Assembly: GCA_963814075.1 (NCBI GenBank)
Contig: CAWFBO010000017.1
Coordinates: 11,950-75,949, forward strand
DNA length: 64,000 nt
From: an uncultured Chitinophagaceae bacterium
Lineage (GTDB): Bacteria; Bacteroidota; Bacteroidia; Chitinophagales; Chitinophagaceae
Reading direction: 5' to 3'
Shown here: piece after piece, positions 39,731 through 64,000 of the stretch
Numbering within the stretch: position 1 is the stretch's first letter
Layout of the letters: every line of letters begins with the position of its first letter
Made by a program: the position numbers and the translations under genes
The notes under the pieces: model-generated
Told to the model about the DNA's origin: nothing
Databases searched by the model: none
The model's input: only the letters and a program-made list of their open reading frames with translations

Positions 39731-39745
39731 AGCTCACCAAAATAT

Positions 39746-43970: not shown

Positions 43971-43993
43971 GGAAATTTTTGTAAACCGGCGTT

Positions 43994-45107: not shown

Positions 45108-48100
45108 TTGAAAGATGATACATTCTGCCAGGATTGCTTTTTTGTTTCTTTCAACAGTTTATGTTTTGCTTTTTTCATCGGCTGCCATAAAAAACAGAAT
45201 TTAACACCCATATTCCAGGTAAAAGATGCACAAAGCACCGGCATTAATTTTTCAAATAAATTAAACCCCACTCCCGAATTTAATGCCCTGCAATATTTGT
45301 ATTATTATAATGGTGCGGGAGTTGGCGCCGGAGATTTTAATAACGACGGGAAAACAGATCTTTTCTTTGCTTCAAACGAGGGAGAAAATAAATTATACCT
45401 AAACCGTGGAAACCTTAAGTTTAAAGATGTAACGAAAGAAGCAATGATTCCGCAAGATGGCGGCTGGTCAACCGGGGTTTCTGTTGTAGATATAAATAAT
45501 GATGGATTATTGGATATTTACATTTGCCGCGTGGGAAATTATAAAACGCTTAACGGCAAAAATCAACTACTCATTTGCCAGGGAATTGATAAGAATGGAG
45601 TTCCTTATTACAAAGATGAAGCGCATCAATATGGCCTCGATTTTTCTGGATTCAGCACACAAGCCGTTTTTTTTGATTATGATGGCGATGGCGATTTGGA
45701 TATGTATTTACTAAATCATTCCATTCATGAAAACGGAACGTTCGGAGACCGAAGCATGTTATTAAAAAAACAAGTTCCCGTTTCCGGAGACCGCCTTTAC
45801 CAAAATGACGGCAACAATCATTTTACAGATGTTACTGCATCGTCCGGCATCAACAGTTCTGTATTGGGCTACGGGCTGGGAGTTACCGTATCTGATATCA
45901 ACCTTGATGGATATCCTGATATCTATGTAGGAAACGATTTTCACGAAAATGATTACCTGTACATCAATCAACATAACGGCACCTTCAAAGATGAACTTAC
46001 TGACCATATCATGCACACCAGTAAATCCACAATGGGAGTTGATGTTGCGGATGCCAATAATGACGGCTACCCGGATATCATAAGTATGGATATGCTGGCT
46101 TCAGATCCTGTCGTTCTGAAAAGTTCGCTTGGTGATGATGAAGAAGACGAATTTTTATTAAAATCAAAACTGGGTTATAATCCGCAATATGCAAGAAACA
46201 ACCTTCAATTCAACAGGCGGAATGGCATGTTTAGCGAGGTTGGCGAATTTTCGGGTGTAGCTGCTACCGATTGGTCGTGGGCGCCGCTTTGGATGGATTT
46301 TGATAATGACGGATTGAAAGATTTATTCGTAACAAATGGCATCCCTACCCGGCTGAATAATATTGATTACCTCGATTTTGTGTCAGGTAATAAAATACAG
46401 CAAAAGTTGGAAACTCAAACGCTGGATAAAAGCGATTTGAATCAACTGAAAACATTCCCGGAAATAAAAATTGATAATAAATTTTTCCGCAACCGGGGCG
46501 ACATGCAATTTGAAGATATGAAAAACCAAATTGCGAATGACAGGCAAACCTTTTCAAACGGAGCTGTTTATGCAGACCTCGATAATGACGGCGATATGGA
46601 TGTTGTGGTGAATAATATTGACGACAATGCGCTATTGTACGAAAATAAAACTAATGAAAAGGGCAAGTAAAGAAAACAGGCCATTTGTTGAAATAAAATT
46701 AAAAGGGCCTGCAAAAAATATCAATGCCATCGGCTCCAAAATATTTTTGTATGGCAATGGCGGCATTCGCAGTTATGAAAAATTCCCGGTGAGAGGATTT
46801 ATGTCGAGCATGGAAACACCCATCCACATTGGCCTTTATCAAACCAAAATAGATTCTGCTTTCCTGGTTTGGCCGGATAATACGTTTCAACAGATTGAGC
46901 TGAACTCTTTGAATCATTTAATAACTTTTACCTACAAAACCGGGCTTTCAAAATTTAATTACAGCCTGGTAAAAGGGGGTAAGAAAAATGAAACGAAGCC
47001 GATGGAGGACATTACCGCGAAAGTGGATTTAAAATATAAGCATGAAGAAAATCCGATGCAGGAATTTAATGTGGAACCTTTGATGCCTCACCTGCTAACA
47101 ACCGAAGGGCCGGCATTAGCGGTTGCAGATATTAATCATGATGGGCTTGAAGATGTTTTTATCGGGTCGTCTAAAAATAAAAAGAATGCAATTTTTATTC
47201 AACAACCCAATGGAAAATTTATAAAATCACAGCAGCCTGGTTTAGAAAAAGACAGCATGAATGAGGATATCGGTGCTTGTTTTGCTGACGTGAATCATGA
47301 TGGAAATATTGATTTAATTATTGCAAGCGGTGGAGATGAACCGGGCAATAATTTATTTTTAGCTCCAAGGGTTTATTTGAACGATGGCAAGGGGCATTTT
47401 TTTAAATCCGAAAATGCATTTGACAGTCTTTTTGTGAATGCTTCATCCGTCGCAGCTGATGATTTTACCGGGGACGGAAACGTTGATTTATTTATAGGCG
47501 GAAGGTCAGTCCCGGGAAAGTATGGTGAAATACCACACTCTTATTTGTTGCAAAATGATGGTAAAGGACATTTTAAAGACGTAACCCAAAAGTATGCTGA
47601 AGGCTTGTCGAATATCGGTATGGTTACTTCTGCAATTTGGTTTGATATAGATCATGATGGGGATAAAGATCTGATTCTTACACTCGAGTGGGGAGGAGTT
47701 GTTGCCTTTATCAATGATCATGGGATTTTGCATAAAAAAATTCTTTGTGATAAAAAAGGCTGGTGGAATTTTGTGTTGCCCGTTGATGTAAATAATGATG
47801 GTAAAATTGACCTTATCGCCGGGAACCTTGGATTGAACAGCCCTTTAAAAGCCACTGCCAGCGAGCCTGTAAGAATGTATTATAATGATTTTGACAATAA
47901 TGGCACAAGCGAGCAGGTAATGACTTATTATGTTGGGGGAAAAGAAATTCCTTTTGCCACCATGAAAGATTTGGAAAAACAAATTCCCTCCATAAAGAAT
48001 CGTTTCCCAACTGCCATTGATTTTGCAAAAGCAACTCCTGAAGAATTATTTACCAAAGAAAAGCTGGCCTCGTCTGACAAGTTTACCGCTGATTATTTTG

Positions 48101-48456
48101 CAAACTCAATTTTAATTAATAAAGGCAATTTAAATTTTGATGTTGAGCCAATGCCCTGGCAGGCGCAGCTTTCATGTTATAAAACGGCGGCAATAATTGA
48201 TGCGAATGGCGATAGTTTGCCGGACATCTTGCTTGCAGGAAATTATTATGGGAACAGTGTACAACTGGGCAGGAATGATGCCGATTTTGGAACTATTTTA
48301 TTAAATAAAGGAAATGGAAAGTTTGAAGCCGGTTCTATAAATGGGTTGCAGATTAAAGGCCAGGTGCGGTATATTCAAAAGATAAACATTGGCAATAAAG
48401 AAGCTTTTATCCTGGCGAGGAACAATGACAGTACGATGGTAATTCAGTTTAAATAA
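45108..48456 (+). CDS. FG-GAP/VCBS repeat ASPIC/UnbV protein, copy 2 (frameshift near 46660; start uncertain)
   Basis: Paralogous to 39746..43075 (GAGVGAGDFNNDG, TDWSW, SNGAVYADLDNDGD, TEGPALAVAD, GWWN, ARNND). Confidence 0.88.
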
Positions 48457-48652
48457 TTATTACAAAAAACTATCGCAAAAAAAGGGCATTTGTTTTTTTC
48501 AAAAATTCAAAGAACAGTAAAGCAATAAATAATTCGAATTTTTATTTTGTTTTATTGCGGCACCGATTTTTTTTATTAAATAAACTCCTTTTCAAACAAA
48601 GCAAATACCTTTAATTTACACTACTGATTATTTTGAAATTAAATTGCCTGGT

Positions 48653-50688
48653 ATGAAAAAGTTATTTTCTTTATTTTTCTTTTTATTTTCTTTTTCCTTT
48701 TCTTTTTCGCAATCAAATGATTCCTGGAAAATTGCTGCTAACAAAATTGATCCATCCAATTACTACGGCGAAACAGTTGCCAATGGTATGATCGGTATTG
48801 TTTCTTCTGCAGAGCCATTAAAATGCAAAACGGTTGTTTTAAACGGCGCGTATGATCAATATGGCCGAGGAATGGTAAGCAATTTCCTGCAAAGCTTTAA
48901 CCTGGTTGATATGCAAATGGATATTGACGGTCATCGCATTGGAGATAAAGATGCCAGCAATATGAGGCAGGTGCTCGATATGAAGCACGCTAATTTAAGT
49001 ACTACGTTTGATTACGGCGACAAAGCCACCATTTCTTATACTTATTATGCGCTGAGAAATCTGCCTTACAATGTTTTGGTAGATGTTACTATCACTGCAA
49101 AAAAAGATATAGAAATAATTCCGGCAAGTGTACTGCAGGCACCGGATGAATTGCGAGATGTGCAGAATTATTACAACCAGGTTGATAAACCGGGCGAGTT
49201 AATCAGTTTGCTTGTTTCAACAGCAAAAAGCCCGACAGGAAAATTAACCTTTGCTTCGGCAACTACATTTCTTTTTGATGAACCACAGGAACACAACCGG
49301 AACTGATCCATGAAATGTGGGACAACAATATGCATCTTTTGAAATTTAAGAAGAAACTGAAAGCAGGAACTTCCTATCATTTTGCGATTGCCGGCGTATC
49401 CATCAGCACCGCACAGCATGAAGATCCGTTTAACGAAGCACAGCGGTATGCCATATACGCAAAATTGCAAGGCGTTAAAAAACTCATTCAATTTCATGAT
49501 GCAGCATGGGACAATCTTTGGAAGAGCGATGTTGAAATTCAGGGTGATGAAGCAAGCGAGCGCGATATTCATTCTGCCATGTACCATTTGTATTCTTTTG
49601 TCAGGGGCGGTACCGCGTATAGCCCGTCGCCGATGGGATTGAGCGGGCTTGGATATAACGGCCATGTTTTCTGGGATGCGGAATTATGGATGTATCCCGG
49701 CTCTTTTGGTGCTACATCCGGAGATGGCGAAAAGCATGGTGGAATACCGTTATCCGAACGGCTTGAAAGCGGCAGAACATAATGCTTTTGCACATGGATA
49801 TAAAGGCGCGATGTATCCATGGGAAAGTGCTGCAAGCGGTAATGGAAGAAACACCGGTATGGGCGCTTCAGCGGGCCTTTTGAACATCATATAACGGCCG
49901 ATGTAGCCATCGCGGCATGGAATTATTTTGCGGTAACGCAGGATACGCCATGGCTTCGCGAAAAAGGTTTCCCGATGATAAAGGAATGTGCCGATTTCTG
50001 GACGAGCCGTGTTGAGAGAAACGGTCCCGGGCATTATGATATTAATAATGTAGTGGCCGCGGATGAATGGGCAGAGAATGTAGACAATAACGCCTTTACC
50101 AATGCAGCGGCAAAAGCGAATTTACAATACGCAGTGTGGGCGGCAGAAATTTTACATGAGCCCGTTGATACCGATTGGATCAATGTAAGAAATAATATTC
50201 CGATCCTGAAAATGGCTAATGGCGTTACTTCAGAATATGCGGGATATAATGGAATAAAAATCAAACAGGCAGACGTGAATCTATTGGCTTATCCTCTAAA
50301 AGAGATTACGGATCCGGCACAAATAAAAAAAGACCTGGCTTACTATGAAAGCAGGGTGGGAGAAGGCTCTCCGGCGATGACGCACGCCATCTTTACCATT
50401 TTATATGCGCGGCTTAATGAACCCGAAAAAGCATGGAACGCATTTGAAGAGTCCTATATTCCAAATAAATTGCCGCCATTTGGTGTAATGGCAGAAACAG
50501 CCGGAGGTACCAATCCTTATTTTGCTACAGGTGCAGGAGGATATTTGCAAAGCGTGCTGTTTGGTTTTGGCGGACTTGATATAACGCGGGATGGAATTGT
50601 ACAATTAAAGACTTCGCTGCCAAAAAACTGGAAGTCACTAACCCTTACAGGAATTGGAAAAGATAAAAAGACCTTTGTTGTGAAGTGA
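48653..50688 (+). CDS. Secreted GH65 glycoside hydrolase (kojibiose hydrolase/PGGHG-like); frameshifted
   Basis: Signal peptide; ANGMIG, SPMGLSGLGYNGHVFWDAELW, YPWES, VVAADEWAE, KQADV.LL.YPL, YFATGAGG.LQ. Confidence 0.88.
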
Positions 50689-50874
50689 GTTTTTCGGGGG
50701 AGTGCAATTTAGTAAACCAACTTTTTTGAAAGATTCCTATTTCGCAAGTGAAGTGAACTTGCTATTGTCACAGATAAGTATTTTTTCCTGAATTAAAATA
50801 ATAAGTACAAAATTTTCTTAATTTTAGCGAAATCTATTTTTTAAGTAGTATTTATTTTATTGCTTAATTGCTTA

Positions 50875-51450
50875 ATGATTGCTTTGAAAAAGATAACTGC
50901 TATATTTTTTCTCGTTCTTTTCGCTTTCAACTGGTTTGGATACCGGCTGATGTATGATTATATGCAGAAGCAAGCCAACAAGCAGTTAGAAGCCAACCTG
51001 GATAATGATCAATACGATGAATCACAGTTGATTGAATTAAAGGTTCCTGTTAATCTTCCTTATCAAACCAGTTGGGCATCTTACCAACGTTACAATGGTG
51101 AAATTGAGTTAAACGGCGTAAGATATAAATATGTAAAGCGTAAACTTGCCAACGATACGCTTTATCTAAAATGCATTCCCAATACCAAAGAGATGATGCT
51201 GCAGACAGCGAAAGACGAATTCTATCAATTATCAAATAATCTTCTTCAAAATAGTAATCCGAAAAAAGCCGACAACACAGCTTCGGTTTTCAAGAATCTT
51301 CAAAACGTATTTAATGAGCCCTCTTTGGGATTTGACATTTCTTCCCCGTTTTTATCCGGACTGAGAAATTGGATTCCTTTGAAACCGGCACACCTGCTTT
51401 CCATCATTCATCTTTCTCCCGAACAGCCACCAGATGCTGTAATTGCCTGA
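50875..51450 (+). CDS. Hypothetical membrane-anchored protein ending in a Pro-Pro motif
   Basis: N-terminal TM (FNWFGY), GEIELNG..YKYVKR...DTLYLKC, C-terminal HLSPEQPPD. Confidence 0.75.
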   Translation: MIALKKITAIFFLVLFAFNWFGYRLMYDYMQKQANKQLEANLDNDQYDESQLIELKVPVNLPYQTSWASYQRYNGEIELNGVRYKYVKRKLANDTLYLKCIPNTKEMMLQTAKDEFYQLSNNLLQNSNPKKADNTASVFKNLQNVFNEPSLGFDISSPFLSGLRNWIPLKPAHLLSIIHLSPEQPPDAVIA

Positions 51451-52004
51451 TTTCCGGCTATTTTAAGCCCGAAAGAAATGCAGCTCCTTAAAATTTAATG
51501 GAATTGTTGCGGCCATCGTTTTTAGTTGTGAAAAAGAAAACCTGCGATCTTTTTTGATACCCGTTTTTAAAGACGCGGCGTATCTCAAAAGCAAAAGTGT
51601 TTCATTAGCAATTAAAAATAATAAGCGACAAGATAATTTTATTCCATAGTTTTTTCACCACGAAGGTTTATTCCGGTGATATCCTTCAGCGCTGCGTTTC
51701 AGGCATCCAAAAATATTCCCGATCAAACAGAATTGCGAATTGAACATGTGACAAGCCGACACTGTTCAACAAACAACGGCTTTACGAATTGTAAAATTTA
51801 ATGGCTGTTTTAGAAACAACAAGTGTGTTTAACAATACAAAAAAATTAGGAGACCCCGTTTTTTAAAATACTCTTTATGAAAATGAACCAGTCTTATTAT
51901 TTGTGTTTATTCCCGTTTTGCATCGCTATTGGCAAACCGGGTAATGGACAGACTTGCCTCTTAAAAACTCAACAAAATTCTTCTCAAATACTAAATTTTT
52001 TATT

Positions 52005-53093
52005 ATGAAACAGATCTCTTCCATCGCGCTAATTGCCATTTTTTTCACGTGCGTCGCGGGCACGGCTCATTCACAAGGTTGCGTGGCTATTCGCAGCACG
52101 GGTGGCGTATGCACCATGGACCAGGACCAACAGTTGGATACCCTTACAAAATGGGATATAAATGTTAACAACAGGTACTTTAAATCTTTCAGGCATTTCG
52201 TTGGAACACAGGAACAAAAACAACGTGTAGAACAAGGAACAGAAGTTATCAATCACTCTTACACGCTGGATATTACGCCTACCTACCATTTAAACAAATG
52301 GTGGTCTTTTTCTCTTGATGTTCCAATATTAGCCAACACACGTTCGTCACTTTACGAGCACGACCACGTGAGCAGGCATCAAACCCATTCTTTCGGCGTT
52401 GGTGACATAAGACTTACAGCCTACACATGGCTTTTTGATCCTGGAAAAATGCCACGGGGCAATGTACAGGTGGGCCTTGGAATTAAGTTGCCTACAGGCG
52501 ATTATAATTACCAGGATTTCTTTTACAAAAGTGATACGACCAGGGTGTTAGGCCCTGTTGATCAATCCATCCAACTGGGTGATGGCGGAACTGGTTTTAC
52601 GTTTGAAATGAACGCCTTCTATAGTTTTACCGAAAAGTTTTCAAGCTATGCAAATGTGTATTACCTCGCTAATCCGCGTGAACAAAACGGGACTTCCACC
52701 TCAAGAGGCGGAACACCCTCACAAAGCAGCATTTTATACCAAAGCAGTACCATGAGTGTGCCTGATCAATATATGTTGAGAGCAGGCGTGAATTATAACA
52801 TCAGTTCTCTACAACTTTCATTGGGTGTAAGGGATGAATGTTTGCCGGTTCACGATCTTATTGGGGGAAGCGGCGGTTTTCGCAGGCCGGGATATATCAT
52901 TTCTATTGAGCCGGGAGTAAATTATTCTTTCAAAAAATTCAATTTGTATGCTTTTGTACCGGTGGCTTTACAACGCAACAGGACACAAAGTGTACCGGAT
53001 AAAATTAAAACAGCAATGACGGGAACTTATTCGCAAGGCGACGCAGCTTTTGCAGATTATACAGTAAACATAGGGTTTACAAAGAGGTTCTAA
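52005..53093 (+). CDS. Outer-membrane beta-barrel protein with N-terminal Cys pair
   Basis: Signal peptide then QGCVAIR...C; amphipathic strands; GVGDIRL, GIKLPTG and QLGDGG (SphA/transporter-like); C-terminal Phe. Confidence 0.75.
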   Translation: MKQISSIALIAIFFTCVAGTAHSQGCVAIRSTGGVCTMDQDQQLDTLTKWDINVNNRYFKSFRHFVGTQEQKQRVEQGTEVINHSYTLDITPTYHLNKWWSFSLDVPILANTRSSLYEHDHVSRHQTHSFGVGDIRLTAYTWLFDPGKMPRGNVQVGLGIKLPTGDYNYQDFFYKSDTTRVLGPVDQSIQLGDGGTGFTFEMNAFYSFTEKFSSYANVYYLANPREQNGTSTSRGGTPSQSSILYQSSTMSVPDQYMLRAGVNYNISSLQLSLGVRDECLPVHDLIGGSGGFRRPGYIISIEPGVNYSFKKFNLYAFVPVALQRNRTQSVPDKIKTAMTGTYSQGDAAFADYTVNIGFTKRF

Positions 53094-53122
53094 CAGCTGA
53101 ATAAATATTAATCAAGTAATAC

Positions 53123-53156
53123 GGCCCTGTTATTCTTATCGGGGGCCTCTTTTTTT
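53123..53156 (+). terminator. Intrinsic terminator after the barrel gene
   Basis: GGCCCT...GGGGCC stem followed by a T7 run. Confidence 0.6.
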
Positions 53157-53225
53157 GAATAACTAAGATCGATGTTTTTTTGAATTCCAACAAAAAAATC
53201 ATTTTTAGTTGTCGGGTAAAAACTT

Positions 53226-53261
53226 TCAAAATAAAAAAAGTAAAAAATTGTCTGTTTACCG
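53226..53261 (+). repeat. 36-bp upstream motif, copy A (before AhpD-like 1)
   Basis: TCAAAATAAAAAAAGTAAAAAATTGTCTGTTTACCG; 28/36 identical, ungapped, to 55753-55788. Confidence 0.6.
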
Positions 53262-53288
53262 GACAAGTCAATTTCTAAAATTAACATC

Positions 53289-53867
53289 ATGCCATACATT
53301 CCATTAGAAGCACATTTGCCGGGCATTACAGGTTTACTTGAATACGATAAAATAGCGGCAAAGCCGATAAGAGAACTTACGCAAATTTTACTTCGCGGCC
53401 CTTCTTCATTAACTGAAGGTGAACGTGAATTAATTGCTACGGTGGTTTCAAATGGAAATCAATGCAGCTTTTGTACTGCGGCCCATACTGCCGCCGCTAA
53501 TATTTTACTCGGCGAAAATGAAACTTCTAAAAACGTAAAAGAAAATATTGTCACCGCACCTGTAAGTAATAAAATGAAGGGATTGTTAACTATCGCATCG
53601 ATGGTTCGGGAAAGTGGTAAGGCTGTTACAAAGGAAGCAATAGAAAAAGCAAAGGCAGAAGGAGCAACCGACATTGAGATTCATGACACGGTTTTGATTG
53701 CCGCCTTATTCTGTTTGTACAACCGTTATGTTGACGGGCTTGCTACTGTTACTCCTGCCAACCCGGATTTCTATAAAAATTTAGCCATTCGTCTGAAGGA
53801 TCATGGGTACAATCGTTTGAAGGAGGGATATGATCATTTGAAAAAAGATAAATCCTTAGCGTCATGA
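53289..53867 (+). CDS. AhpD/carboxymuconolactone decarboxylase-like protein 1
   Basis: LPGI, ERELIATVVS..NQCSFCTAAH, IHDTVLIAALFCLYNRYVDGL. Confidence 0.9.
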   Translation: MPYIPLEAHLPGITGLLEYDKIAAKPIRELTQILLRGPSSLTEGERELIATVVSNGNQCSFCTAAHTAAANILLGENETSKNVKENIVTAPVSNKMKGLLTIASMVRESGKAVTKEAIEKAKAEGATDIEIHDTVLIAALFCLYNRYVDGLATVTPANPDFYKNLAIRLKDHGYNRLKEGYDHLKKDKSLAS

Positions 53868-55138
53868 AGAAGTTTACAACTGAATATAGTCCTGTTCGCG
53901 AGAAGAAAAACCTGGCAATTGCATTTGCCATTTGTTATATCAGTATTATGTTCAGCGGCATTTCTTCGATGCTGATGTCTGTATATCTGCCGGTAGCCGT
54001 AAAAGATCTTTTGGGCAATGTGACGGATGAAAGAATGAATACCATCAGCGCCTACATCAATTCCATATTTATATTCGGAACTATGTTTGGCGGTTTTGCC
54101 TGGGGATTTATCTGCGATAAGATCGGCCGCTCGAGATCAGTGATTTTATCAACGGCCTTGTACGGCTTGTTCACTCTACTCACTTCATTTTCATCATCCT
54201 GGTTCCTGGCCGGCGTCTATCGTTTTGTTACAGGATTTGGCGTTGGCGGCGTAATGGTGACTACCAATATTTTGATAGCCGAAATATGGCCTGAAAAGAA
54301 AAGAGCCATAGCTCTTGGAATTGTATCAGCAGCAATGCCTGTAGGGTTTATTGTTGCCGGCCTTTTAAATAATTTGATACCCGAATGGCGAAGTGCTTTT
54401 CTTTCAGGAATTATTCCTTTGGCGACGACCCTCATTGCGGTATTTGTTTTAGCAGAACCGGAGGCCTGGAGAAATGTCTATGAAACTAAAAAAAATGAAG
54501 CAGGTTCACGGCTTTTTTCAAACGAGTACAGGAAAAATCTGATTCATGGTTCTATAGTTTTTGGCGCCATGCTTATTGGTTTGTGGGCCATTTTTTCATG
54601 GGCACCCACATGGGTACAAAGTGTTACGCCTGATCCCGTCAAAGCCAACGAACTACGCGGCACTACGATGATCGTTTTGTCTTTTTCAGGTTTGATAGGA
54701 AGCATTGTTTCCGGCTGGATTGTGAATCGTATGGGCATGCGCAACACGATGACTATGTGCTTCATTGTAAGCTTTATAATGACGGGTGTTGTGTTCAAAT
54801 TGAATCACTCGGTTACTGCTGCAACTTTCATAGAAATGAGTGCACTCACTTTCTTTTTTGGGATAAGCCAGGGCGCGTTATCTGTTTACATCCCCTCGCT
54901 ATTCCCCACAAGTGTGAGAGCTTCTGCAACAGGATTTTGTTTCAATATCGGGAGATTGTTTACAGCGACGGTAGTCTTCTTTATTGGTGCACTGGTTTTG
55001 TTTTTGGGAGGTTACGGCAATGCGATCTTCACATTCTCATTCATCTTTTTGATCGGATCCATTTTTACAATATTCTCAAGAAATACGATAAAACCAAAAT
55101 TGCCTGTTGCAGATTTTGAAACATCTGTCGCCGGATAA
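53864..55138 (+). CDS. MFS transporter
   Basis: About 12 hydrophobic segments; GFICDKIGR motif A, RFVTGFGVGG, EIWPEKKR, FPTSVRASATG; ATGA overlap with the upstream gene. Confidence 0.92.
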   Translation: MKKFTTEYSPVREKKNLAIAFAICYISIMFSGISSMLMSVYLPVAVKDLLGNVTDERMNTISAYINSIFIFGTMFGGFAWGFICDKIGRSRSVILSTALYGLFTLLTSFSSSWFLAGVYRFVTGFGVGGVMVTTNILIAEIWPEKKRAIALGIVSAAMPVGFIVAGLLNNLIPEWRSAFLSGIIPLATTLIAVFVLAEPEAWRNVYETKKNEAGSRLFSNEYRKNLIHGSIVFGAMLIGLWAIFSWAPTWVQSVTPDPVKANELRGTTMIVLSFSGLIGSIVSGWIVNRMGMRNTMTMCFIVSFIMTGVVFKLNHSVTAATFIEMSALTFFFGISQGALSVYIPSLFPTSVRASATGFCFNIGRLFTATVVFFIGALVLFLGGYGNAIFTFSFIFLIGSIFTIFSRNTIKPKLPVADFETSVAG

Positions 55139-55187
55139 AACATAAACAAAAGGTGTTTAAAATATTAACTAATAAACCATAAAAAAA

Positions 55188-55739
55188 ATGGCACACATAA
55201 AAGTTCCCGAAGGTGTTCCCGGAATCAGGAGCCTGGTAATGTTTAGACCGGAAACCGGCAAACCTTTATACGAATTAGCGCAGGTTTTATTAAGAGGCGA
55301 ATCCACTTTAAGCGAAGCGCAACGTGAGTTGATTGCGGCTTATGTTTCAAAGAGAAACGACACCATGTTTTGCATGATGAGCCATGCTGCTGCTTCCCGT
55401 GAGCTGTTTGGCGATGATAAACAAATCGTAGATGATGTATTGAAAGATATGAATAAGGCTGAAATCAGTAACAAGATGAAAGCGCTTTTAAACATCGCGG
55501 GCAAGGTGCAGGAACTTGGTAAGGAAGTAAAGGCTGAAGATATTGATGCAGCAAGAAAAGAGGGTGCTACAGATAAAGAGATACATGACACAGTGTTAAT
55601 CGCTGCTGCATTCAGCATGTTTAACCGCTATGTAGATGGCCTGGCAAGTTTTACGCCAACCGATGAAAAGGAATACGAAGCCATGGGAAAGCGAATGGCA
55701 GAGAAAGGCTACGTGCCCCCTGCAAATAAAGAGCACTAA
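55188..55739 (+). CDS. AhpD/CMD-like protein 2 (TxxC variant)
   Basis: VPGIRSL, QRELIAAYVS..NDTMFCMMSH, IHDTVLIAAAFSMFNRYVDGL. Confidence 0.9.
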   Translation: MAHIKVPEGVPGIRSLVMFRPETGKPLYELAQVLLRGESTLSEAQRELIAAYVSKRNDTMFCMMSHAAASRELFGDDKQIVDDVLKDMNKAEISNKMKALLNIAGKVQELGKEVKAEDIDAARKEGATDKEIHDTVLIAAAFSMFNRYVDGLASFTPTDEKEYEAMGKRMAEKGYVPPANKEH

Positions 55740-55752
55740 TAGCAGTACGAAC

Positions 55753-55788
55753 TCAAAATAAAAATCTCAACTAATTATTTGTTTACCG
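55753..55788 (+). repeat. 36-bp upstream motif, copy B (before AhpD-like 3)
   Basis: TCAAAATAAAAATCTCAACTAATTATTTGTTTACCG, then an A-run and ATGGCTTACAT. Confidence 0.8.
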
Positions 55789-55801
55789 AAAAAAATAAAA
55801 T

Positions 55802-56354
55802 ATGGCTTACATCGATTTACAAAATGATTTACCCGGAATTCGCGGCCCCATGCAATACAGTCCTGAAACCGGCAAAGCCTTAAATGAGCTGGCAGAAATT
55901 TTATTGCATGACGAGAACAATACACTCTCGCGTGGCGAACGTGAAATGATCGGCGCTTATGTGTCTTCTCAAAACGATTGTTTCTTTTGCCAGAATGTGC
56001 ACGGCGCAATGGCTCAACATTATTTCGAATGCGACATGCAATTTATTGATGACATTAAAAAGGATTATACATCCACTCCCATTTCAGACAAACTTAAAGC
56101 ACTCTTAAGTATCGCCGGCAGTGTTCAAAAGGGAGGGAAGTTTGTTACGCACGAACAAATTGAAACTGCCAAAAATCAAGGTGCTACTGATAAAGAAATT
56201 CATGATACCGTTTTGATCGCTGCCGCATTTCTGCATGTTCAACAGGTATGTTGACGGATTGAATACGTGGGCGCCAAAAGATAGAAACGTGTATGTAGAA
56301 CGCGCAAAAATGCGTGCTGATGATGGCTATGCCAATTTAGATCCCAACAAATAA
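55802..56354 (+). CDS. AhpD/CMD-like protein 3 (extra base near 56230)
   Basis: EREMIGAYVS..NDCFFCQNVH; removing one T restores FCMFNRYVDGLNTWAPKDRNVYVERAKMRADDGYANLDPNK* ending at 56354. Confidence 0.88.
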
Positions 56355-56368
56355 AACTGACAATAACC

Positions 56369-57873
56369 ATGTATAAAAAAAGCAGTCTTTTTCTTTTAAT
56401 TGTCATAAGCGCTTTACAGGTTTACAGCCAAAAGTTTAGCGTAAGTTTTACCCGGGCGGCATCAGGATGAAAAGCTTTTCAGGTAAAGTGTTGTTGTATT
56501 TATCAAAAGATGCCAGATCTCCAAAAGATGAAATGGTGGGCGTTCATCAATTCCCCTGCTTTTCAATCACTGTAAATAATGTAAAGCCGAATGACAAAGT
56601 TGTGTTTGATGATAAGGCAATTTCTTATCCTGTTGCACTATCCGATATAGAAAGAGGCCAATATTATGCGCAGGTTGTTTGGGATAAAAATTTGGGAGGC
56701 CGTTCAATTGGTGAAAGCCCTGGCAATATATATAGCGATGCCGTACGTATTAATATCACCAAAGACCGTGATAAAGTTTTTAATATAGCGTGTAATGAAG
56801 TAGAAAAAGAAAAAGCTTTTGTTGAGACGGAGTTTGTTAAAGAACTCAGGCAGCCTTCCACATTATTATCAGCATTTTACAAAAGGCCTGCCAGCATAAG
56901 TGCAGCGGTAATATTACCAAAAGAATATGATGTACAACCCGGAAGAAGGTTTCCTGTTCTTTATTGGGTGAGTGGATTTGGAGGAGATTATCACTTTTTT
57001 TCCGGCAGCGATATACCAAGCCAACCGATAGACACCACGGCCTGCATCAGGGTTTTTCTTGATGGTAATTGCCCGCTTGGGCATTGTGTTTATGCAAATA
57101 GTGACAACAATGGTCCATGGGGTGATGCGCTCACAAAAGAATTAATTCCTGCAATAGAAAAGAAATACCGGTGCAACAATGCCCGCTTGCTTATGGGTCA
57201 TAGTAGCGGTGGCTGGACCGTTCTGTGGCTGCAAACCCATTATCCTGAAATATTTACAGCATGCTGGTCGAGTTCGCCGGATCCGGTTGATTTCAGGAGC
57301 TTTCAACAGGTTAATCTTTATAAGGATAAAAATATCTTTTATGATAAAGACAGTTCTTTAAGAATGGCAGCCACCATAGCCGGGCGGTATCCGTGGATTT
57401 ATATGAAAACCATGTACGAAATGGAACACGTCATTTACCGGGGAGAACAATTGCATTCATTCGATGCAGTATTCAGTACAAAAAATCCTGATGGTTCACC
57501 ACGCAGGCTCGTTAATGAACATACCGGCGTGATTGATCAGGTAACATTTGAACACTGGAAGAAATATGATATTTCACTTTATGTAAGAACCCACTGGCCA
57601 CAACTTGAGCCCGATCTCAAAGGAAAAATAAGAGTGTCTGTTGGCAACCAGGATAATTTTTTACTGAATTATGCCGTGCATTTGTTTGATGACGAAATGA
57701 AAAAAGTAAATGCCGGGTTTGTTTTTGCCTATTACCCCGGCGATCATTTTACGGTAAGCACTGACGAATATAAAGCTGCCGGAATGAAATTCTTAGAACA
57801 GAAATACAATGAATTCACGGAGAAGGATAATGCAATAAGAATAAGAATAAATCAAAATAAAAATCTCAATTAA
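56369..57873 (+). CDS. Secreted alpha/beta-hydrolase (esterase family); frameshift near 56465
   Basis: Signal-like MYKKSSLFLLIVISALQVYSQ from ATG 56369; LP..Y...RRFPVLY, NNGPWGDALT.ELIP, nucleophile GHSSGG, SPDPVDF, GDH. Confidence 0.85.
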
Positions 57874-57887
57874 TTATTTGTTTACTG
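57852..57887 (+). repeat. 36-bp upstream motif, copy C (before AhpD-like 4)
   Basis: TCAAAATAAAAATCTCAATTAATTATTTGTTTACTG; 34/36 identical to copy B; also followed by an A-run and ATGGCTTACAT. Confidence 0.8.
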
Positions 57888-57904
57888 AAAAAAAAATAAA
57901 AATT

Positions 57905-58468
57905 ATGGCTTACATAAATGTTGATAAAAACCTGCCTGGCATAAGGTCGTTGATGGCTTTCAGTCCTGATACAGCAGAACCGATGGGCCAGCTTGCCAAC
58001 TTACTGTTACGCACCAACGAAGGTTTGAGCATGGCTGAAAGAGAAATGATTGCAGCTCATGTTTCTTATTTAAATGACTGCTTTTATTGTCACCAGTCGC
58101 ATGGCGCCATTGCCGCCTGTTATTTGGATGGAAATGCATCGCTCATTGATCAGGTAAAAAAAGATTACCTGCAGGCTGATATCTCAGATAAACTGAAAGC
58201 GTTGCTGAGCATCGCGGGGAGCGTGCAAAAAGGCGGTAAGCATGTAACAGAAGAACAAATCGAAAAAGCTAAAAGCCTGGGAGCGACAGACAAGGACATA
58301 CACGATACGGTATTAATTGCTGCGATGTTCTGCCTGTTCAATCGATATGTGGACGGGCTCGGAGCTTATACGCCGACTGATCTTTCTTCTTATCCGCTAA
58401 GAGCAAAGCAAATTGCGGAACATGGCTATGGTAATTATATTTTTTTAAAATCCCAGCCTGTGGAATAA
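57905..58468 (+). CDS. AhpD/CMD-like protein 4
   Basis: LPGIRSL, EREMIAAHVS..NDCFYCHQSH, IHDTVLIAAMFCLFNRYVDGL. Confidence 0.9.
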   Translation: MAYINVDKNLPGIRSLMAFSPDTAEPMGQLANLLLRTNEGLSMAEREMIAAHVSYLNDCFYCHQSHGAIAACYLDGNASLIDQVKKDYLQADISDKLKALLSIAGSVQKGGKHVTEEQIEKAKSLGATDKDIHDTVLIAAMFCLFNRYVDGLGAYTPTDLSSYPLRAKQIAEHGYGNYIFLKSQPVE

Positions 58469-58508
58469 AATGTCACCGATTTCCCTAAAACTCAAACTCA
58501 AAACAAGT

Positions 58509-61475
58509 ATGAAAAAATTGATAACAATCATTGGAGCAGCCTGGCTTTTAACGATACCACTTCTTTCCCGTGCCCAAAATAAAACACTGAATTTACAGGT
58601 GAAGGAAACAAACGGGCAACCAATCCCCGGTGCTACTATCATGGTAAACAGGCAACGGGCATTGGTAGCAGATGCTCGGGGAACAGTTACCATCTCTAAC
58701 GCACAAAACGCTGTTCTCACCATCAGTGCTGTTGGATTCAAAACGAAAAACATAAAGGCGGATACTTTAAAGCAGAATATTGTTTTTCTTCTTAAAGATG
58801 TAGCCAACCTTGATGAAGTAGTAGTTACGGGTCTTGCCACCACTGTTAAAAGAAGAAACCTCGCCAATGCGGTTACCACCATTTCTTCGAAAGAACTAAG
58901 TGAAACCGCGCCGCCGCAGACATTTGATGAGGCACTGGAAGGAAAAATTCCTGGTGCCTATATCAATTCGAATTCGGGTGCCCCGGGCGGTGGCGTTACC
59001 GTCAAATTACGAGGCATAACCTCTGTCTATGGCCAAACACAACCACTGTATGTGGTAGATGGCGTATTTCTCGACAACAGTTCAACTTCCGCAGGTCTTA
59101 ATGCAGTGACAAGTGCATCAAGTGGCGGGTCACCTATTTCTACACAGGATAACCCTTCAAGCAGAATTGCAGACCTGAACCCGGAAGATATTCAAAGTAT
59201 AGAAATATTGAAAGGCGCCTCGGCGGCGGCCATATATGGTTCGCGGGCGGCGTCTGGTGTTGTTATCATTACTACCAGGAGAGGCCGGGCCGGGAAAACA
59301 ACTATTAATTTTTCCCAGGATTTGGGCGTAATAACAGCAAGAAAATTATTGGGCGTGCGGCAGTTTACGGCAGAGCGGGCTGCAAGTTTATCTCGTGATA
59401 GTGCAACAAGTGTGGCTTTGCAGCAACAGTTTTTAGACGCACAAAGTTCCGGCAAGATATATGATTATGAAAAGGAAATTTATGGAAACACGGGTTTTGC
59501 CAGGAATTCAGAATTGAGTGTTACAGGAGGCAATGAGCAAACGTCTTTCTTTTTTTCTGCTTCCCAAAAAGATGAGGGCGGGATCGTAAAACGCACCGGC
59601 TATAAAAATACCGGGTTCAGGCTGAATGTAGATCATCGCATCAACGATAAAATAAAAATCGGTCTCAGCACCAATTATATCAACTCTTCTGCCGACAGGG
59701 GGTTGTTTGGTAATGATAACGTGGGCGTAACTACCGGCATCGCCTTATCATCAACACCCTCATTTGCTCAATTGCATCCGGATGCCAACGGGAATTATCC
59801 AAACAATCCATTCGCGTCTGCGAACCCTTTGCAAACCATTGCGCTTATGAAAAATAACGAATCGGTCAACCGCTTTATCGCCGGCTTGAATTTGGAAGCG
59901 ATCTTACAAGCCGACTTAAAAAGTACCACAAAACTGGTGGCACGTGGTGGTTTGGATTTTTATAACCTGCAGACTGCTGCGCTGTTTCCCGGTGTTTTAC
60001 AATGGCAAACAATTAATAAGGGAACCTCGATCCAGGGCTTCACCAAAAATCTCAACACGAACTACATCGCATCATTGGTAAACGCTTTTACGCCTTCTGA
60101 TAAAGTATCATTTACTACGTCAGCCGGACTAACACAGGAGACGGGTGACTATAATAATCTGCTAAATGTGGCCACACAAATTATTGCCGGCCAGAGCAAC
60201 GTAAACGAGGCAGGCGCTTTAAATGCCACACAGTTTCGCAATAAATATTTGAACACAGGAATTTTTGCGCAGGAAGAGGCGATCATAAATGACGCTCTCA
60301 CGTTGACTGCCGGTATTCGTTTTGACAGAAGCAGTAATAACGGAGACGTTTCAAAATTTTATACCTATCCCAAGGCCGGCGTGTCGTGGGATCTTACCAA
60401 ATCACGCATTGTGCCGGGTGGGTTTTTTAATAATGTAAAATTGCGGGCAGCTTATGGCGAAGCCAATAATGTGCCGGTGTATGGAAGCAAATTTACCGGC
60501 ATGGTGATCTCTAATATCAGTGGCAACCCGGGGGTGATCGTGAGCACCCAGCAAGGAGACCCGGATATAAAACCTGAACGCCAGAAAGAATTGGAAACAG
60601 GTATTGATTTCAGCGTGTTGAACAGCAGGCTCGGATTTGAACTGACTTATTATGATAAAAGAACCGACGATTTTCTAATGTTGCAGAGCCTTCCTTCCTC
60701 TTCCGGTTTTTCGAGTAAATGGGTAAATGCCGGTGATCTCCGTAATCGTGGTGTTGAATTAAGTGTAAATGCGCTACCGGTAGAAGGCAGGAATGTAACG
60801 TGGAATACGTCTGTGAATTTTTGGTTGAATCGTTCCAAAGTGACACGGCTTACGATACCTCCAATACCGCAAGGCTCCTTTGGTTACGTACTGGGTTCCT
60901 TCCAGATTGAACAGGGCAAATCAGCCACTCAAATCGTGGGTCTCAATGGGATGGGCGTTGGCGTGTTAGGTGATGCTGAGCCTAAATTCCAGATGAGCAC
61001 TTACAATGAAATAACCTTTTTCAGAAAATTAAGCCTTCGCTTTTTGGTGCACTGGAAATACGGTGGAGATAATATCAACCTTACTTCTCTTGAAAATGAT
61101 TTTGGCGGAACCAGCGTCGACTACGATAAGGTAACAAATAAGCTCGGTGTTCCTGACGCCGTTTATCGCATCATGCAAATAGGAACGACTGCCAAAATTT
61201 TTGTGCAGGATGCAAGTTATTTGCGATTGCGCGAGGTAGGCTTATATTATTCGTTCGATAAGATACCGGGAAATGTGGTAAAGAGTATTCGCGTAGGGTT
61301 TTCTCTCAACAATTACATCACCATTACCAAATACAAGTCGTATGATCCTGAGGTTTCCAATTTTGGTTTTGGTTCTACACAGCAAGGTTTGAGTTCCGGC
61401 CTTTCTTCGGGAGTTGATGTAGATCCTTACCCGGCAAGCAAACGCGCAGATTTACATATTTCAATCAGCTTTTAA
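58509..61475 (+). CDS. susC: SusC/RagA TonB-dependent transporter
   Basis: LDEVVVTGL, QPLYVVDGV, ILKGASAAAIYGSRAASGVVIITT, KPER..E.E.G, DASYLRLRE, YDPEVSNF; C-terminal Phe. Confidence 0.94.
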   Translation: MKKLITIIGAAWLLTIPLLSRAQNKTLNLQVKETNGQPIPGATIMVNRQRALVADARGTVTISNAQNAVLTISAVGFKTKNIKADTLKQNIVFLLKDVANLDEVVVTGLATTVKRRNLANAVTTISSKELSETAPPQTFDEALEGKIPGAYINSNSGAPGGGVTVKLRGITSVYGQTQPLYVVDGVFLDNSSTSAGLNAVTSASSGGSPISTQDNPSSRIADLNPEDIQSIEILKGASAAAIYGSRAASGVVIITTRRGRAGKTTINFSQDLGVITARKLLGVRQFTAERAASLSRDSATSVALQQQFLDAQSSGKIYDYEKEIYGNTGFARNSELSVTGGNEQTSFFFSASQKDEGGIVKRTGYKNTGFRLNVDHRINDKIKIGLSTNYINSSADRGLFGNDNVGVTTGIALSSTPSFAQLHPDANGNYPNNPFASANPLQTIALMKNNESVNRFIAGLNLEAILQADLKSTTKLVARGGLDFYNLQTAALFPGVLQWQTINKGTSIQGFTKNLNTNYIASLVNAFTPSDKVSFTTSAGLTQETGDYNNLLNVATQIIAGQSNVNEAGALNATQFRNKYLNTGIFAQEEAIINDALTLTAGIRFDRSSNNGDVSKFYTYPKAGVSWDLTKSRIVPGGFFNNVKLRAAYGEANNVPVYGSKFTGMVISNISGNPGVIVSTQQGDPDIKPERQKELETGIDFSVLNSRLGFELTYYDKRTDDFLMLQSLPSSSGFSSKWVNAGDLRNRGVELSVNALPVEGRNVTWNTSVNFWLNRSKVTRLTIPPIPQGSFGYVLGSFQIEQGKSATQIVGLNGMGVGVLGDAEPKFQMSTYNEITFFRKLSLRFLVHWKYGGDNINLTSLENDFGGTSVDYDKVTNKLGVPDAVYRIMQIGTTAKIFVQDASYLRLREVGLYYSFDKIPGNVVKSIRVGFSLNNYITITKYKSYDPEVSNFGFGSTQQGLSSGLSSGVDVDPYPASKRADLHISISF

Positions 61476-61493
61476 CCTACAATATTTATCATT

Positions 61494-62798
61494 ATGAAAA
61501 AGATTTTCAACATACAAAATACCTTCTTCCTGGCTGCCATATTGCTGTTTACGGCATGCAAAAAAGATTACGGCAATCTTAACGGGGCTACCGTCGAAGT
61601 GTATCAAAATAATGCCACTGTGGCCGAACTTAACAACCTGGTTAGTGGCACGGAATCGGGCATGCGTAATTCGATTGCTTTTTATTTGGATGATGTGGGA
61701 ACTATCGGGAGAGAAATCTATCACTTTTCCAATTCTGAACCAAGGTATGTTACCGATTTGTTAGGCGCAAGCAACGCGACATTGAGCGGCAGTAATTTTT
61801 ATATTACTACGCCCTGGGCTTCGCGCTACAGGGTGGTAAAGAATTGCAATGTTTTGATTGATGCAGCTACTAAATCCACCGTTATCACCGATGCACAGCG
61901 CAAAGGCTATATTGGTTTTGCAAAAACGATCAAAGCGTACCAGCTTTTGCTCAACTTAAATCTTACAGATTCAAATGGCATTCGCATTGATGTTAGCGAT
62001 CCGGATAACCCTGGCCCGATTGTAGATTACAATACGGGACTGACCGCCATTTCATCTTTGTTGGATGAAGGATCCAATGATTTATCGGGCGCCGAAGTTG
62101 CCTTCCCTCTTGCCGGATTTGGCCAATTCAGTGATGCTGCCGGGCTGGTGAAATTCAACAGGGCGCTTGCTGGCAGGGTAGATGTGTACAACAAAAAGTG
62201 GAGCGATGCTTTGACGGCATTAAACGGATCATTCCTGGATTTGAATGGCGATTTCAACACCGGCGTCTATGATGTTTTTGGTACAGGTTCGGGCGACCAG
62301 TTAAATCCCGCTTTCATTCCGCAAAATCAAACCGGTGAAGTGCGTGTAGCGCATCCTTCTTTTGCGGCGGACATTTTGCCTGGTGACGATCGTATCGCGA
62401 AGGCAACGCTACGCAATTCCACAGCATCCATTTCTGCCGGGTTGAGCAGCGACCGGGATGTATGGGTGTACACTTCAAGTACAGCGCCTGTTCCGATTAT
62501 ACGAAATGAAGAATTGATATTGATTTATGCGGAAGCCAATATCCAGTTGAATAATTTTATGGATGCCATTAATGCGTTGAATATTATTCGCAAAAAGCAT
62601 GGTCTTGCAGATTACAGTGGCCCGCAAACTCAAAATGCATTAATTGATGAAATGCTTTATGAACGCAGGTATTCATTATATTTTGAAGGACACAGGTGGA
62701 TAGATTTGCGCCGCTACAACAAGCTAAACGAATTGCCGTTAGACAGGCCTGATGATAACACCTGGTCTCAATTTCCGCTGCCGGTTACCGAGCAATAA
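61494..62798 (+). CDS. susD: SusD/RagB lipoprotein
   Basis: Lipobox FTAC; PIIRNEELILIYAEA, ERRYSLYFEGHRWIDLRR, FPLP..E. Confidence 0.92.
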   Translation: MKKIFNIQNTFFLAAILLFTACKKDYGNLNGATVEVYQNNATVAELNNLVSGTESGMRNSIAFYLDDVGTIGREIYHFSNSEPRYVTDLLGASNATLSGSNFYITTPWASRYRVVKNCNVLIDAATKSTVITDAQRKGYIGFAKTIKAYQLLLNLNLTDSNGIRIDVSDPDNPGPIVDYNTGLTAISSLLDEGSNDLSGAEVAFPLAGFGQFSDAAGLVKFNRALAGRVDVYNKKWSDALTALNGSFLDLNGDFNTGVYDVFGTGSGDQLNPAFIPQNQTGEVRVAHPSFAADILPGDDRIAKATLRNSTASISAGLSSDRDVWVYTSSTAPVPIIRNEELILIYAEANIQLNNFMDAINALNIIRKKHGLADYSGPQTQNALIDEMLYERRYSLYFEGHRWIDLRRYNKLNELPLDRPDDNTWSQFPLPVTEQ

Positions 62799-62870
62799 TT
62801 GCGGGCGCGGAAAAGGCAGCAAACAACAATAGACAGACATTCAATTTTTTAACCAACTCAATAAATAATC

Positions 62871-63413
62871 ATGGCACATATTCAATTAAACAACGACCTG
62901 CCGGGAATTGTAGGCTTATTACATTACAGCCCTGAGACGGCTAAACCTTTAAATGACCTTGCTGAAATTTTATTAGTACATGATAACTCATTAACCAGGG
63001 GTGAAAGAGAAATGATTGCCTCATCAGTATCTTACTGGAACGATTGTCATTTCTGCCATAGTACTCATGGTGCGGCGGCTGCCAACCTCCTGGAGAAGCC
63101 AGCTGCCTTTTTAACCGAAATAAAACAGGGCTTTGCCAACACGGAGGTTTCTACAAAAATGCGGGCCTTGCTCAATATTGCAAAGCATGTGCAGCAGGGC
63201 GGCAAGAATGTAACGGAAGAGGACATACGAAAAGCAAGAGAAGCAGGCGCCGTGGACAAAGAAATTCACGATACGGTGTTGATTGCCGCTGCCTTTTGCA
63301 TGTACAATCGCTATGTAGACGGGCTTGCCACCTGGGCGCCGAAAGAAGATGAAGCTTTTATGCCAATGGGCCAAATGCTGGCTGAACGCGGATACCGTGC
63401 CACTACTCCTTAA
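62871..63413 (+). CDS. AhpD/CMD-like protein 5
   Basis: LPGIVGL, EREMIASSVS..NDCHFCHSTH, IHDTVLIAAAFCMYNRYVDGL. Confidence 0.9.
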   Translation: MAHIQLNNDLPGIVGLLHYSPETAKPLNDLAEILLVHDNSLTRGEREMIASSVSYWNDCHFCHSTHGAAAANLLEKPAAFLTEIKQGFANTEVSTKMRALLNIAKHVQQGGKNVTEEDIRKAREAGAVDKEIHDTVLIAAAFCMYNRYVDGLATWAPKEDEAFMPMGQMLAERGYRATTP

Positions 63414-63453
63414 AAAGGTTCTCTTTCATAAAGGGATGGAATTTCCCTATGCC

Positions 63454-63492
63454 GGGCCGCCATGCAAAAAGGGGAGCAGGCGGCCCTTTTTT
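63454..63492 (+). terminator. Intrinsic terminator closing the AhpD-like/SusCD cluster
   Basis: GGGCCGCC...GGCGGCCC 8-bp GC stem followed by a T6 run. Confidence 0.75.
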
Positions 63493-63638
63493 ATAAAAGG
63501 AATGCTGTTTTTCGCCCTGAAAAGTAAACAGGAAAATAAGCAGGTTTTATATTTTCTTTTTTTAGAAATTTAGTTTCAAATCTTGCCGTCTTTTAGGAAC
63601 TTAGACAATCAACAGAACGTGTTTTTAAAAGAAATAAA

Positions 63639-63941
63639 ATGATCTACTTTACCCAGCTGATTTATCTCAGGGAAGGGCAGGAGGAGGCTTTTGATGAATT
63701 TGAAGCCATCGCTATTCCTGCAATTTTAAAATATAACGGACGGCTCCTGTTGCGAATAAGGCCCGCTGAAAATTCATTTATTGAATGTAACATCGATAAA
63801 CCTTATGAAATCCATTTTGGCGAATTTGAGAGCGAGCAGGATTTTGAGAACTTTTCACAAGACAAAGAACGAAAGAAATTTCTTCACCTGAAGGAACAAT
63901 CGGTAAAGACAACGATATTAATCCGGGGAAAGAAATTTTAA
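63639..63941 (+). CDS. DUF1330-like small protein
   Basis: FE..AIP.I.KYNGRLLLR, PYEIH..EFES..DF..F..D pattern. Confidence 0.7.
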   Translation: MIYFTQLIYLREGQEEAFDEFEAIAIPAILKYNGRLLLRIRPAENSFIECNIDKPYEIHFGEFESEQDFENFSQDKERKKFLHLKEQSVKTTILIRGKKF

Positions 63942-64000
63942 CGGAATGGTTCCACAAACCGACATGGGTCCTCGTCTCTGTCACATTCCTTAGATGCTAC

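Follow-up and report, generated by a model that had tools for sequence, protein, structure and literature searches.

A conserved Bacteroidota locus that couples TonB-dependent transport and an MFS carrier to diverged AhpD-like paralogs, a proposed non-glycan utilization system

SusC/SusD loci are generally interpreted as systems for glycans; the small number of known non-glycan examples handle peptides, B12 or siderophores. The subject of this analysis is a 64,000-nt stretch of DNA from an uncultured Chitinophagaceae bacterium (the window), which carries a SusC/SusD operon encoding five AhpD-like proteins (Ahp1 to Ahp5) together with a carrier of the major facilitator superfamily (MFS). The operon resembles polysaccharide utilization loci and RagA-RagB-type loci in that SusC/SusD is encoded alongside genes for periplasmic and cytoplasmic processing and an inner-membrane MFS carrier. 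It differs from them in having no carbohydrate-active enzyme (CAZyme) and neither a hybrid two-component nor an extracytoplasmic function (ECF)/anti-sigma sensor, in that its enzymes are of the AhpD type, and in that most genomes have a plain TonB receptor in place of SusC/SusD. TonB receptors and MFS carriers also occur together in importers of small metallophores such as FptA/FptX, PdtK/PdtE and FslE/FslD. The operon shares with the FptA/FptX type the pairing of an outer-membrane TonB receptor with an MFS inner-membrane importer, but its MFS protein is of another subfamily, no iron-related genes are present and the cytoplasmic partners are AhpD-like.

The enzymes themselves recall the AhpC/AhpD system of Mycobacterium tuberculosis, with which they share the PF02627 fold family and the Glu-x12-Cys-x2-Cys-x3-His arrangement. 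Here, however, there is no AhpC partner, the paralogs number three to five and are diverged, they fall in the TIGR01926 subfamily and they are linked to transporters. By description, and not by sequence, they can also be likened to Pseudomonas aeruginosa RclX/RcsA, an AhpD-like Cys-x2-Cys protein that acts on a small reactive compound and not on a peroxiredoxin (PMC7950407, PMC9751292), although RclX is a single gene under RclR without transporter linkage. The closest solved relatives are the TIGR01926 structures 2prr, 3c1l, 2pfx and 2oyo and the Deinococcus radiodurans AhpD-like protein 6k40 (E = 1e-18 to 9e-23; entries 2prr, 3c1l and 6k40 hold 12 chains each); all are products of single genes, none of them known from a transporter operon. 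In the literature TIGR01926 and DUF3179, the latter a family that recurs in the loci described below, appear mainly as families with selenocysteine forms. One review places the AhpD-like selenoprotein family in COG2128, the namesake of which is E. coli YciW, and YciW is CysB-regulated in E. coli. The original prediction for this stretch did not recognize the architecture as a described system, and full-text literature searches likewise yielded no description of it.

Coordinates are positions in the window, and genes were assigned from a listing of open reading frames (ORFs) and from profile searches against Pfam and NCBIfam. Nine co-oriented genes occupy 53289–63413 on the + strand between two terminator-like hairpins, in the order Ahp1, MFS, Ahp2, Ahp3, esterase, Ahp4, SusC, SusD, Ahp5.

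53123..53147, + strand: terminator-like hairpin followed by U7, 3′ of the porin gene up379 (−13.2 kcal/mol, z = −2.0)
53289..53867, + strand: Ahp1, cytoplasmic AhpD-type protein with Cys-x2-Cys-x3-His (PF02627; TIGR01926 85.9 bits)
53864..55138, + strand: MFS carrier, organic-anion type (MFS_1 133 bits)
55188..55739, + strand: Ahp2, with C1 changed to Thr and C3 to Ser (PF02627; TIGR01926 92.8 bits)
55802..56354, + strand: Ahp3, its frame broken in the window (PF02627; TIGR01926 70.5 bits)
56369..57873, + strand: secreted alpha/beta-hydrolase esterase with a GHSSGGW elbow (PF00756)
57905..58468, + strand: Ahp4, genetically coupled to SusC (PF02627; TIGR01926 100.7 bits)
58470..61475, + strand: SusC/RagA-type TonB-dependent transporter (TIGR04056 511.9 bits; SusC signature 59.1 bits)
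61494..62798, + strand: small SusD-like lipoprotein of 434 amino acids with lipobox Cys 22 (PF07980 70.1 bits)
62871..63413, + strand: Ahp5, fifth paralog, accessory (PF02627; TIGR01926 87.5 bits)
63454..63486, + strand: terminator-like hairpin followed by U6 at the operon end (−30.1 kcal/mol for an 81-nt stretch)

The intergenic gaps, in gene order, are −4, 49, 62, 14, 31, 1, 18 and 72 nt, and SusC carries no signalling extension. The gene order, families, shared orientation and tight spacing given by the original prediction were all recovered, and the two hairpins that it took as bounds both fold and are each followed by a U-run. It had also reported the absence of glycoside hydrolases and lyases, in line with which the profile searches found no CAZyme between the two terminators. 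Related loci were collected by scanning one genome per species, which gave 80 loci; about 100 loci were compared overall, and the counts given below use the 47 that are well flanked. Among the ~100 loci no glycan-specific glycoside hydrolase, lyase or carbohydrate esterase was recurrent, nor was any gene for metal, sulfur or aromatic-catabolic functions, or any regulator or sensor family (hybrid two-component, ECF/anti-sigma or SusR). An AhpC/TSA (peroxiredoxin) gene was likewise not recurrent there, and none is present in the window operon.

The Ahp proteins have no signal peptides, which are found on the esterase orthologs, SusC, SusD (a lipobox) and up379. The curated cut-off for TIGR01926 (‘peroxidase-related enzyme’, represented by 1,829 clusters at 50% identity with E <= 1e-10) is 81.8 bits and is exceeded by four of the five paralogs (85.9–100.7 bits), Ahp3 falling below it because its frame is truncated in the window. 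The five had been described as clearly diverged copies with common motifs, and this was borne out, as pairwise identities are 44–48% and PGI, RE.I, N....C...H and IHDTVLIAA.F are invariant in all of them. In a tree of 245 Ahp sequences the five groups corresponded to the five gene positions (Ahp1, 87 members; Ahp2, 59; Ahp3, 60; Ahp4, 26, with support 0.999; Ahp5, 12). The positions thus form orthologous groups, and the duplications are therefore older than the divergence of the orders, the copies having been kept separately since. The AhpD catalytic arrangement of Glu-x12-Cys-x2-Cys-x3-His is kept in all clades with partial loss in Ahp2. Of 58 Ahp2 orthologs, 14 have Thr at C1 and 38 have Ser at C3, and C2 and the His are invariant. 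This conservation argues that each paralog is under separate selection and is probably redox-active, and the pattern is what one would expect of subunits or steps that are not redundant. Selenocysteine forms exist at the Cys motifs of both TIGR01926 and DUF3179 (PMC13188914), and this marks the motifs as redox-active sites.

Two kinds of fusion involving Ahp-like proteins were seen. In one protein (P0179, L104:8001–9182) an AhpD-like domain is joined to DUF899, a family that matches AhpC/TSA weakly, and this fusion may hint at a redox partner. In some genomes (L091:7585–9825; P0208, P0239) the Ahp gene reads into the next TonB receptor without a stop, and the gene callers then report fusions of 798–1009 amino acids. 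As a fusion of a cytoplasmic with an outer-membrane protein would make no sense topologically, these may reflect read-through after loss of a stop codon, or tight coupling.

The 80 loci span Chitinophagaceae, Mucilaginibacter, Pedobacter, Cytophagales (Spirosoma, Dyadobacter, Chryseolinea and Arcicella), Flavobacterium and Saprospiraceae, with Ahp1 64–90% identical across orders. Over the ~100 loci compared, the core is found in Chitinophagales, Sphingobacteriales, Cytophagales, Flavobacterium and Saprospiraceae. The Ahp genes were found to be syntenic with the MFS gene and the SusC/SusD clade in many genomes. The original prediction had named a lack of such synteny as a refutation; the retained synteny shows the system to be real and not a chance neighbourhood. 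In other classes of the phylum the arrangement is MFS-Ahp-Ahp-Ahp-TonB receptor. Of 300 high-quality genomes sampled evenly across the phylum, 18 (~6%) had a close family member, and with the window's own genome counted the carriers fall in 16 of 144 genera. Within the genus, close Ahp homologs occur in 9 of 36 genomes, five of these having six matches each. This tally, like those for SelD, SusD and CysD, takes in the unpublished genome G023, on which no individual claim depends. SusD orthologs of at least 72% identity lay only inside Ahp clusters in the 61 genomes searched. The more distant SusD homologs that were examined (43–56% identity) belong to stand-alone SusC/SusD pairs with uninformative neighbours.

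Gene neighbourhoods across the well-flanked loci separate a core from its accessories. The MFS gene is present in 45 of 47 loci, Ahp3 in 42, and Ahp2 and the upstream gene up196 in 38 each, up196 mostly lying directly 5′ of Ahp1. On these counts the conserved core is Ahp1, MFS, Ahp2, Ahp3 and up196 plus one outer-membrane route, which is either a plain TonB receptor (26/47) or Ahp4-SusC-SusD (13/47); Ahp4 adjoins SusC in 12 of the 13 SusC-type loci. By the same comparison the accessories are the esterase (4/47), Ahp5 (7/47), DUF3179 (17/47), a MetE-like enzyme (10/47) and PAP2-like lipoproteins. The accessory enzymes are of thiol and ester types: DUF3179 proteins lie in the membrane, carry a CTVC motif and in some metagenomic contigs are encoded as a minimal pair together with one Ahp protein, the MetE-like enzyme is of the Zn thiol-alkyl transferase type, and the esterases are of the PF00756 and BD-FAE families. 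The system was classified as a non-glycan TonB-dependent utilization locus. In this respect the original proposal of a non-glycan uptake-and-processing locus stood, as the locus is conserved and free of glycan enzymes. Its notion of a system built around five paralogs and an esterase did not stand, the centre being Ahp1–3, MFS and up196 with one of the two outer-membrane routes.

Two genes upstream of the first hairpin, and so outside the range given in the original prediction, belong to this picture.

50875..51450, + strand: up196, small membrane-anchored protein, first gene of the conserved system (from conservation, alignments and a structural model)
52005..53093, + strand: up379, beta-barrel porin of the outer membrane that has a signal peptide and ends in Phe (from Atlas similarity)

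In the up196 protein an N-terminal transmembrane helix is followed by a five-stranded beta domain and a helix, and the chain closes with a disordered tail that has a conserved PEQPPD end; its predicted structure has a pLDDT (predicted local distance difference test) of 80.6. The family is confined to Bacteroidota; it has no match in Pfam or NCBIfam, and fold searches of the PDB and the Atlas returned no relative beyond the family itself. Second copies occur in four loci, directly 5′ of SusC in L021 and L069 (...Ahp4-up196-SusC-SusD), after Ahp4 at a contig end in L015 and after DUF3179 in L065. The porin up379 scored 1.00 in the Atlas against OmpL-like/Phenol_MetA_deg porin clusters, in which only 13–16% of members carry PF13557. 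In several loci from Chitinophagaceae, including some that have no TonB receptor, its gene is placed after up196 and before Ahp1, and it may be an alternative outer-membrane entry route.

The preferred interpretation of these data is that the operon imports a small organic anion, which is then subjected to thiol chemistry in the cytoplasm. The probability of this reading is put at roughly 0.45. The outer-membrane part of the system is interchangeable and the MFS and Ahp set is fixed, which argues for import and cytoplasmic processing of a small compound. Also in its favour are the lack of signal peptides on the Ahp proteins, the nearness of the MFS carrier to aromatic-acid/H+ symporters and SLC22 organic-anion carriers, the absence of CAZymes, AhpC and sensors or regulators from the locus, the confinement of close SusD orthologs to Ahp clusters, and the thiol or ester chemistry of the accessory enzymes. 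Under this proposal SusC/SusD, or elsewhere a plain TonB receptor or small porin, would take a small organic compound, probably an anion, through the outer membrane. The secreted esterase would, in this lineage, release the compound from an ester in the periplasm, and the MFS carrier would deliver it to the cytoplasm. There it would be acted on, most likely by reduction, by a fixed set of AhpD-type Glu/Cys-x2-Cys/His oxidoreductases, comprising Ahp1–3 everywhere, Ahp4 where SusC/SusD is used, and Ahp5 here. The paralogs may operate as a hetero-oligomer or a relay, and the membrane-anchored up196 would be part of the system. As candidate cargoes, oxidized organosulfur compounds and phenolic or aromatic acids bound as esters are both compatible with weak hints. 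A wider version of the proposal is a phylum-wide nutrient pathway of soil and freshwater Bacteroidota, in which TonB import would be combined with three to five AhpD thiol reductases (probably hetero-oligomeric), the up196 family and DUF3179 and would serve a novel class of cargo, for example oxidized organosulfur compounds or natural organohalogens. This wider version is regarded as doubtful.

Several observations weigh against import followed by thiol processing. Six of the 47 loci have no outer-membrane gene and some minimal loci consist of Ahp and DUF3179 alone, so that Ahp proteins can evidently work without a dedicated importer. Linkage to importers is the sole ground for the direction of transport assigned to the MFS carrier. 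AhpD-fold proteins of known role deal with oxidants or peroxiredoxins, not imported nutrients (PMC7950407, PMC9751292). Finally, the source genome (G000) has CysD, as do most genomes, carriers and non-carriers of the cluster alike; the operon is therefore not a substitute for sulfate assimilation, a candidate role that was rejected because CysD shows no association with the cluster.

The intact AhpD catalytic motif could also belong to a defence system in which the Ahp proteins would destroy peroxides or hypohalous or hypothiocyanous acids and the transporters would carry a protective or damaged molecule and not a nutrient. AhpD-like RclX/RcsA of P. aeruginosa protects against hypochlorous and hypothiocyanous acid (PMC7950407, PMC9751292), PAP2/vanadium-haloperoxidase-like lipoproteins lie within the cluster in 10 loci, and there is the one fusion to DUF899, with its weak AhpC/TSA match. 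Note, however, that the ~100 loci are without AhpC, peroxiredoxin or redox sensor, and that the PAP2-like lipoproteins are putative haloperoxidases or phosphatases. Close linkage to TonB importers and an MFS carrier would be unexpected for a pure defence module, and one oxidant would hardly account for three to five non-redundant paralogs. Defence against oxidants or reactive halogens is thus considered an unlikely explanation of the locus.

The abundance of Cys-x2-Cys proteins raises the question of metal or metalloid handling (e.g. Cu, As, Se or Hg), where the TonB receptor would import a complex and the Ahp, DUF3179 and MetE-like proteins would bind, reduce or methylate the metal. Selenoprotein forms of DUF3179 and TIGR01926 are listed among metal-related selenoproteins, weak NF041537 matches connect the paralogs to AhpD domains fused to arsenite methyltransferase, and the named Atlas clusters nearest to up196 are of the DUF2946/CzcI type (score 0.83), which is a lead only. 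Nevertheless, metal-binding domains, P-type ATPases, regulators of the Fur/Zur type and riboswitches are all missing from the loci examined, and the MFS protein resembles organic-anion carriers, its nearest solved chains being SLC22 organic-anion transporters. Nor does selenium metabolism follow the cluster. SelD is present in the source genome (G000:C3:312106–313032) and in 31 of 36 genus genomes whether or not they have the cluster, and it was not found in three carriers, two of which gave no match (G044, G052) and one only a match of 77 bits, below the cut-off (G216). Selenium use therefore seems genus-wide and unrelated to the operon, and a selenium link was rejected. Metal handling in general is judged distinctly unlikely.

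A third alternative, catabolism of aromatic or phenolic acids without redox chemistry, would have the CMD (carboxymuconolactone decarboxylase)-fold proteins decarboxylate (PcaC-like) or reductively dehalogenate (Bmp8-like) acids released from esters. The family models nearest to the MFS carrier are the aromatic acid/H+ symporters (TIGR00895, 156 bits against a cut-off of 418.55 bits) and MhpT (111 bits against 410), but as all family matches lie under their cut-offs, membership is secure only at the superfamily level. The solved chains nearest to the esterase include ferulic acid esterases, along with 8z91 esterase, mycoloyltransferase PS1, esterase D and an IroE-like protein, and BD-FAE esterases flank two loci; esterases are nevertheless rare accessories of the system. 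Relatedness of up379 to Phenol_MetA_deg-type porins and a FadL-like gene that adjoins one related SusC/SusD pair also point in this direction. Against these stand the paralogs themselves, which have the AhpD Cys-x2-Cys-x3-His site and gave no PcaC family match among their NCBIfam hits, and the absence of ring-cleavage, CoA-ligase and pca genes from the loci. Such a pathway is held to be very unlikely.

TonB receptor and MFS pairs are typical of some siderophore importers, and PF00756 includes Fes, IroD and IroE, but uptake of a catecholate-ester siderophore, which SusC/SusD would import, a Fes/IroE-like esterase would open, the MFS carrier would bring in as fragments and the Ahp proteins would strip of iron, is highly improbable, since most loci have no esterase, Pfam matched PF00756 alone with no enterochelin-esterase N-terminal domain, the match to IroE-like 3gff is weak (E = 0.002) and surpassed by those to other esterase types, and no iron-related gene or regulator was found in the loci.

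The assembly of the window bears on two of the nine genes. In Ahp3 one extra base at 56227/56228 places the NRYVDGL part in the next frame, and in the esterase the signal peptide (ATG 56369) is off-frame from the body, with a break at ~56450–56470. Contigs from a soil-metagenome run (X1) cover 56% of the sampled words of the stretch, each correction coming from one contig at 3–4x depth. The X1 contig does not have the base at 56227, for which reason the Ahp3 break was read as an assembly error; it also shows 1-nt deletions at 57833 and 57837. The esterase N-terminal break lies outside X1 coverage. Upstream of the operon, before a terminator, stands a GH65 phosphorylase gene (48644–50688) that is conserved in Chitinophagaceae alone and is broken into three ORFs. 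X1 contigs differ from the window there by single-base indels (49291, 49694, 49845 and 49866), and the window assembly therefore appears indel-rich. Ahp3 orthologs in other genomes are intact, and from these sequence comparisons the Ahp3 break, like those in GH65, looks like an assembly indel and not a pseudogene. The esterase orthologs are 68–80% identical with intact signal peptides; the structural model of the esterase has a pLDDT of 43.8 and is too poor for use.

A 41-nt AT-rich motif that ends in AATTRTYTGTTTACYGRAMAA was matched three times in the window, against 0.18 matches expected.

53226..53266, + strand: motif copy 1 (..AATTGTCTGTTTACCGGACAA), 22 nt 5′ of the Ahp1 start
55753..55793, + strand: motif copy 2, 8 nt 5′ of the Ahp3 start
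57852..57892, + strand: motif copy 3, 12 nt 5′ of the Ahp4 ATG, overlapping the tail of the esterase ORF

Elsewhere the motif was found in the closest relatives alone and so does not characterize the system; a leader or internal promoter particular to this lineage is one possibility. Nothing credible was obtained in a search of 50000–64000 for riboswitches and other known RNAs, and inspection by eye upstream of up196 revealed AT-rich promoter-like words only, with no shared palindrome that could serve as an operator.

The region between up196 and Ahp1 is a site of insertion in related genomes, where two families of PAP2/vanadium-haloperoxidase-like lipoproteins (~450 and ~515 amino acids), a secreted 317-amino acid protein of unknown type and the up379 porin were seen. 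The loci with PAP2-like insertions L027, L029, L035, L055 and L065 are Chitinophagaceae variants without a TonB receptor. In the window the spacer between up196 and up379 (51451–52004, 554 nt), a position occupied by PAP2-like genes in related genomes, has no ORF, Rfam match or PAP2-like remnant. Remnants of PAP2, DUF3179 and MetE-like genes were absent from the window and from the rest of the source genome, which is 63% complete in 25 contigs. A Pfam scan of 101 same-strand flanking ORFs found only a second MFS family (7 members) and occasional esterases to recur. Further upstream lies a separate SusC/SusD locus (34886–48456) with large FG-GAP/ASPIC-UnbV proteins, one of them split (45108–48456), and FG-GAP/UnbV-like genes flank the Ahp cluster in seven other loci.

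No assigned physiological function for TIGR01926 was found in the literature, and the conserved system includes two protein families of unknown function. The locus is a defined starting point, amenable to genetics, from which the physiological role of the large TIGR01926 family can be approached. Cultured carriers are found in Pedobacter (P. foliorum LMG 31463), Mucilaginibacter (M. gossypii Gh-67), Spirosoma (Spirosoma sp. KNUC1025), Dyadobacter, Flavobacterium (F. granuli) and Terrimonas (T. pollutisoli). The known non-glycan SusC/SusD systems each opened a field. If the phylum-wide nutrient pathway were to prove true, it would concern a class of compound not known to be scavenged by TonB import and AhpD thiol reductases. 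The locus may also indicate an unmapped class of soil nutrient or toxin.

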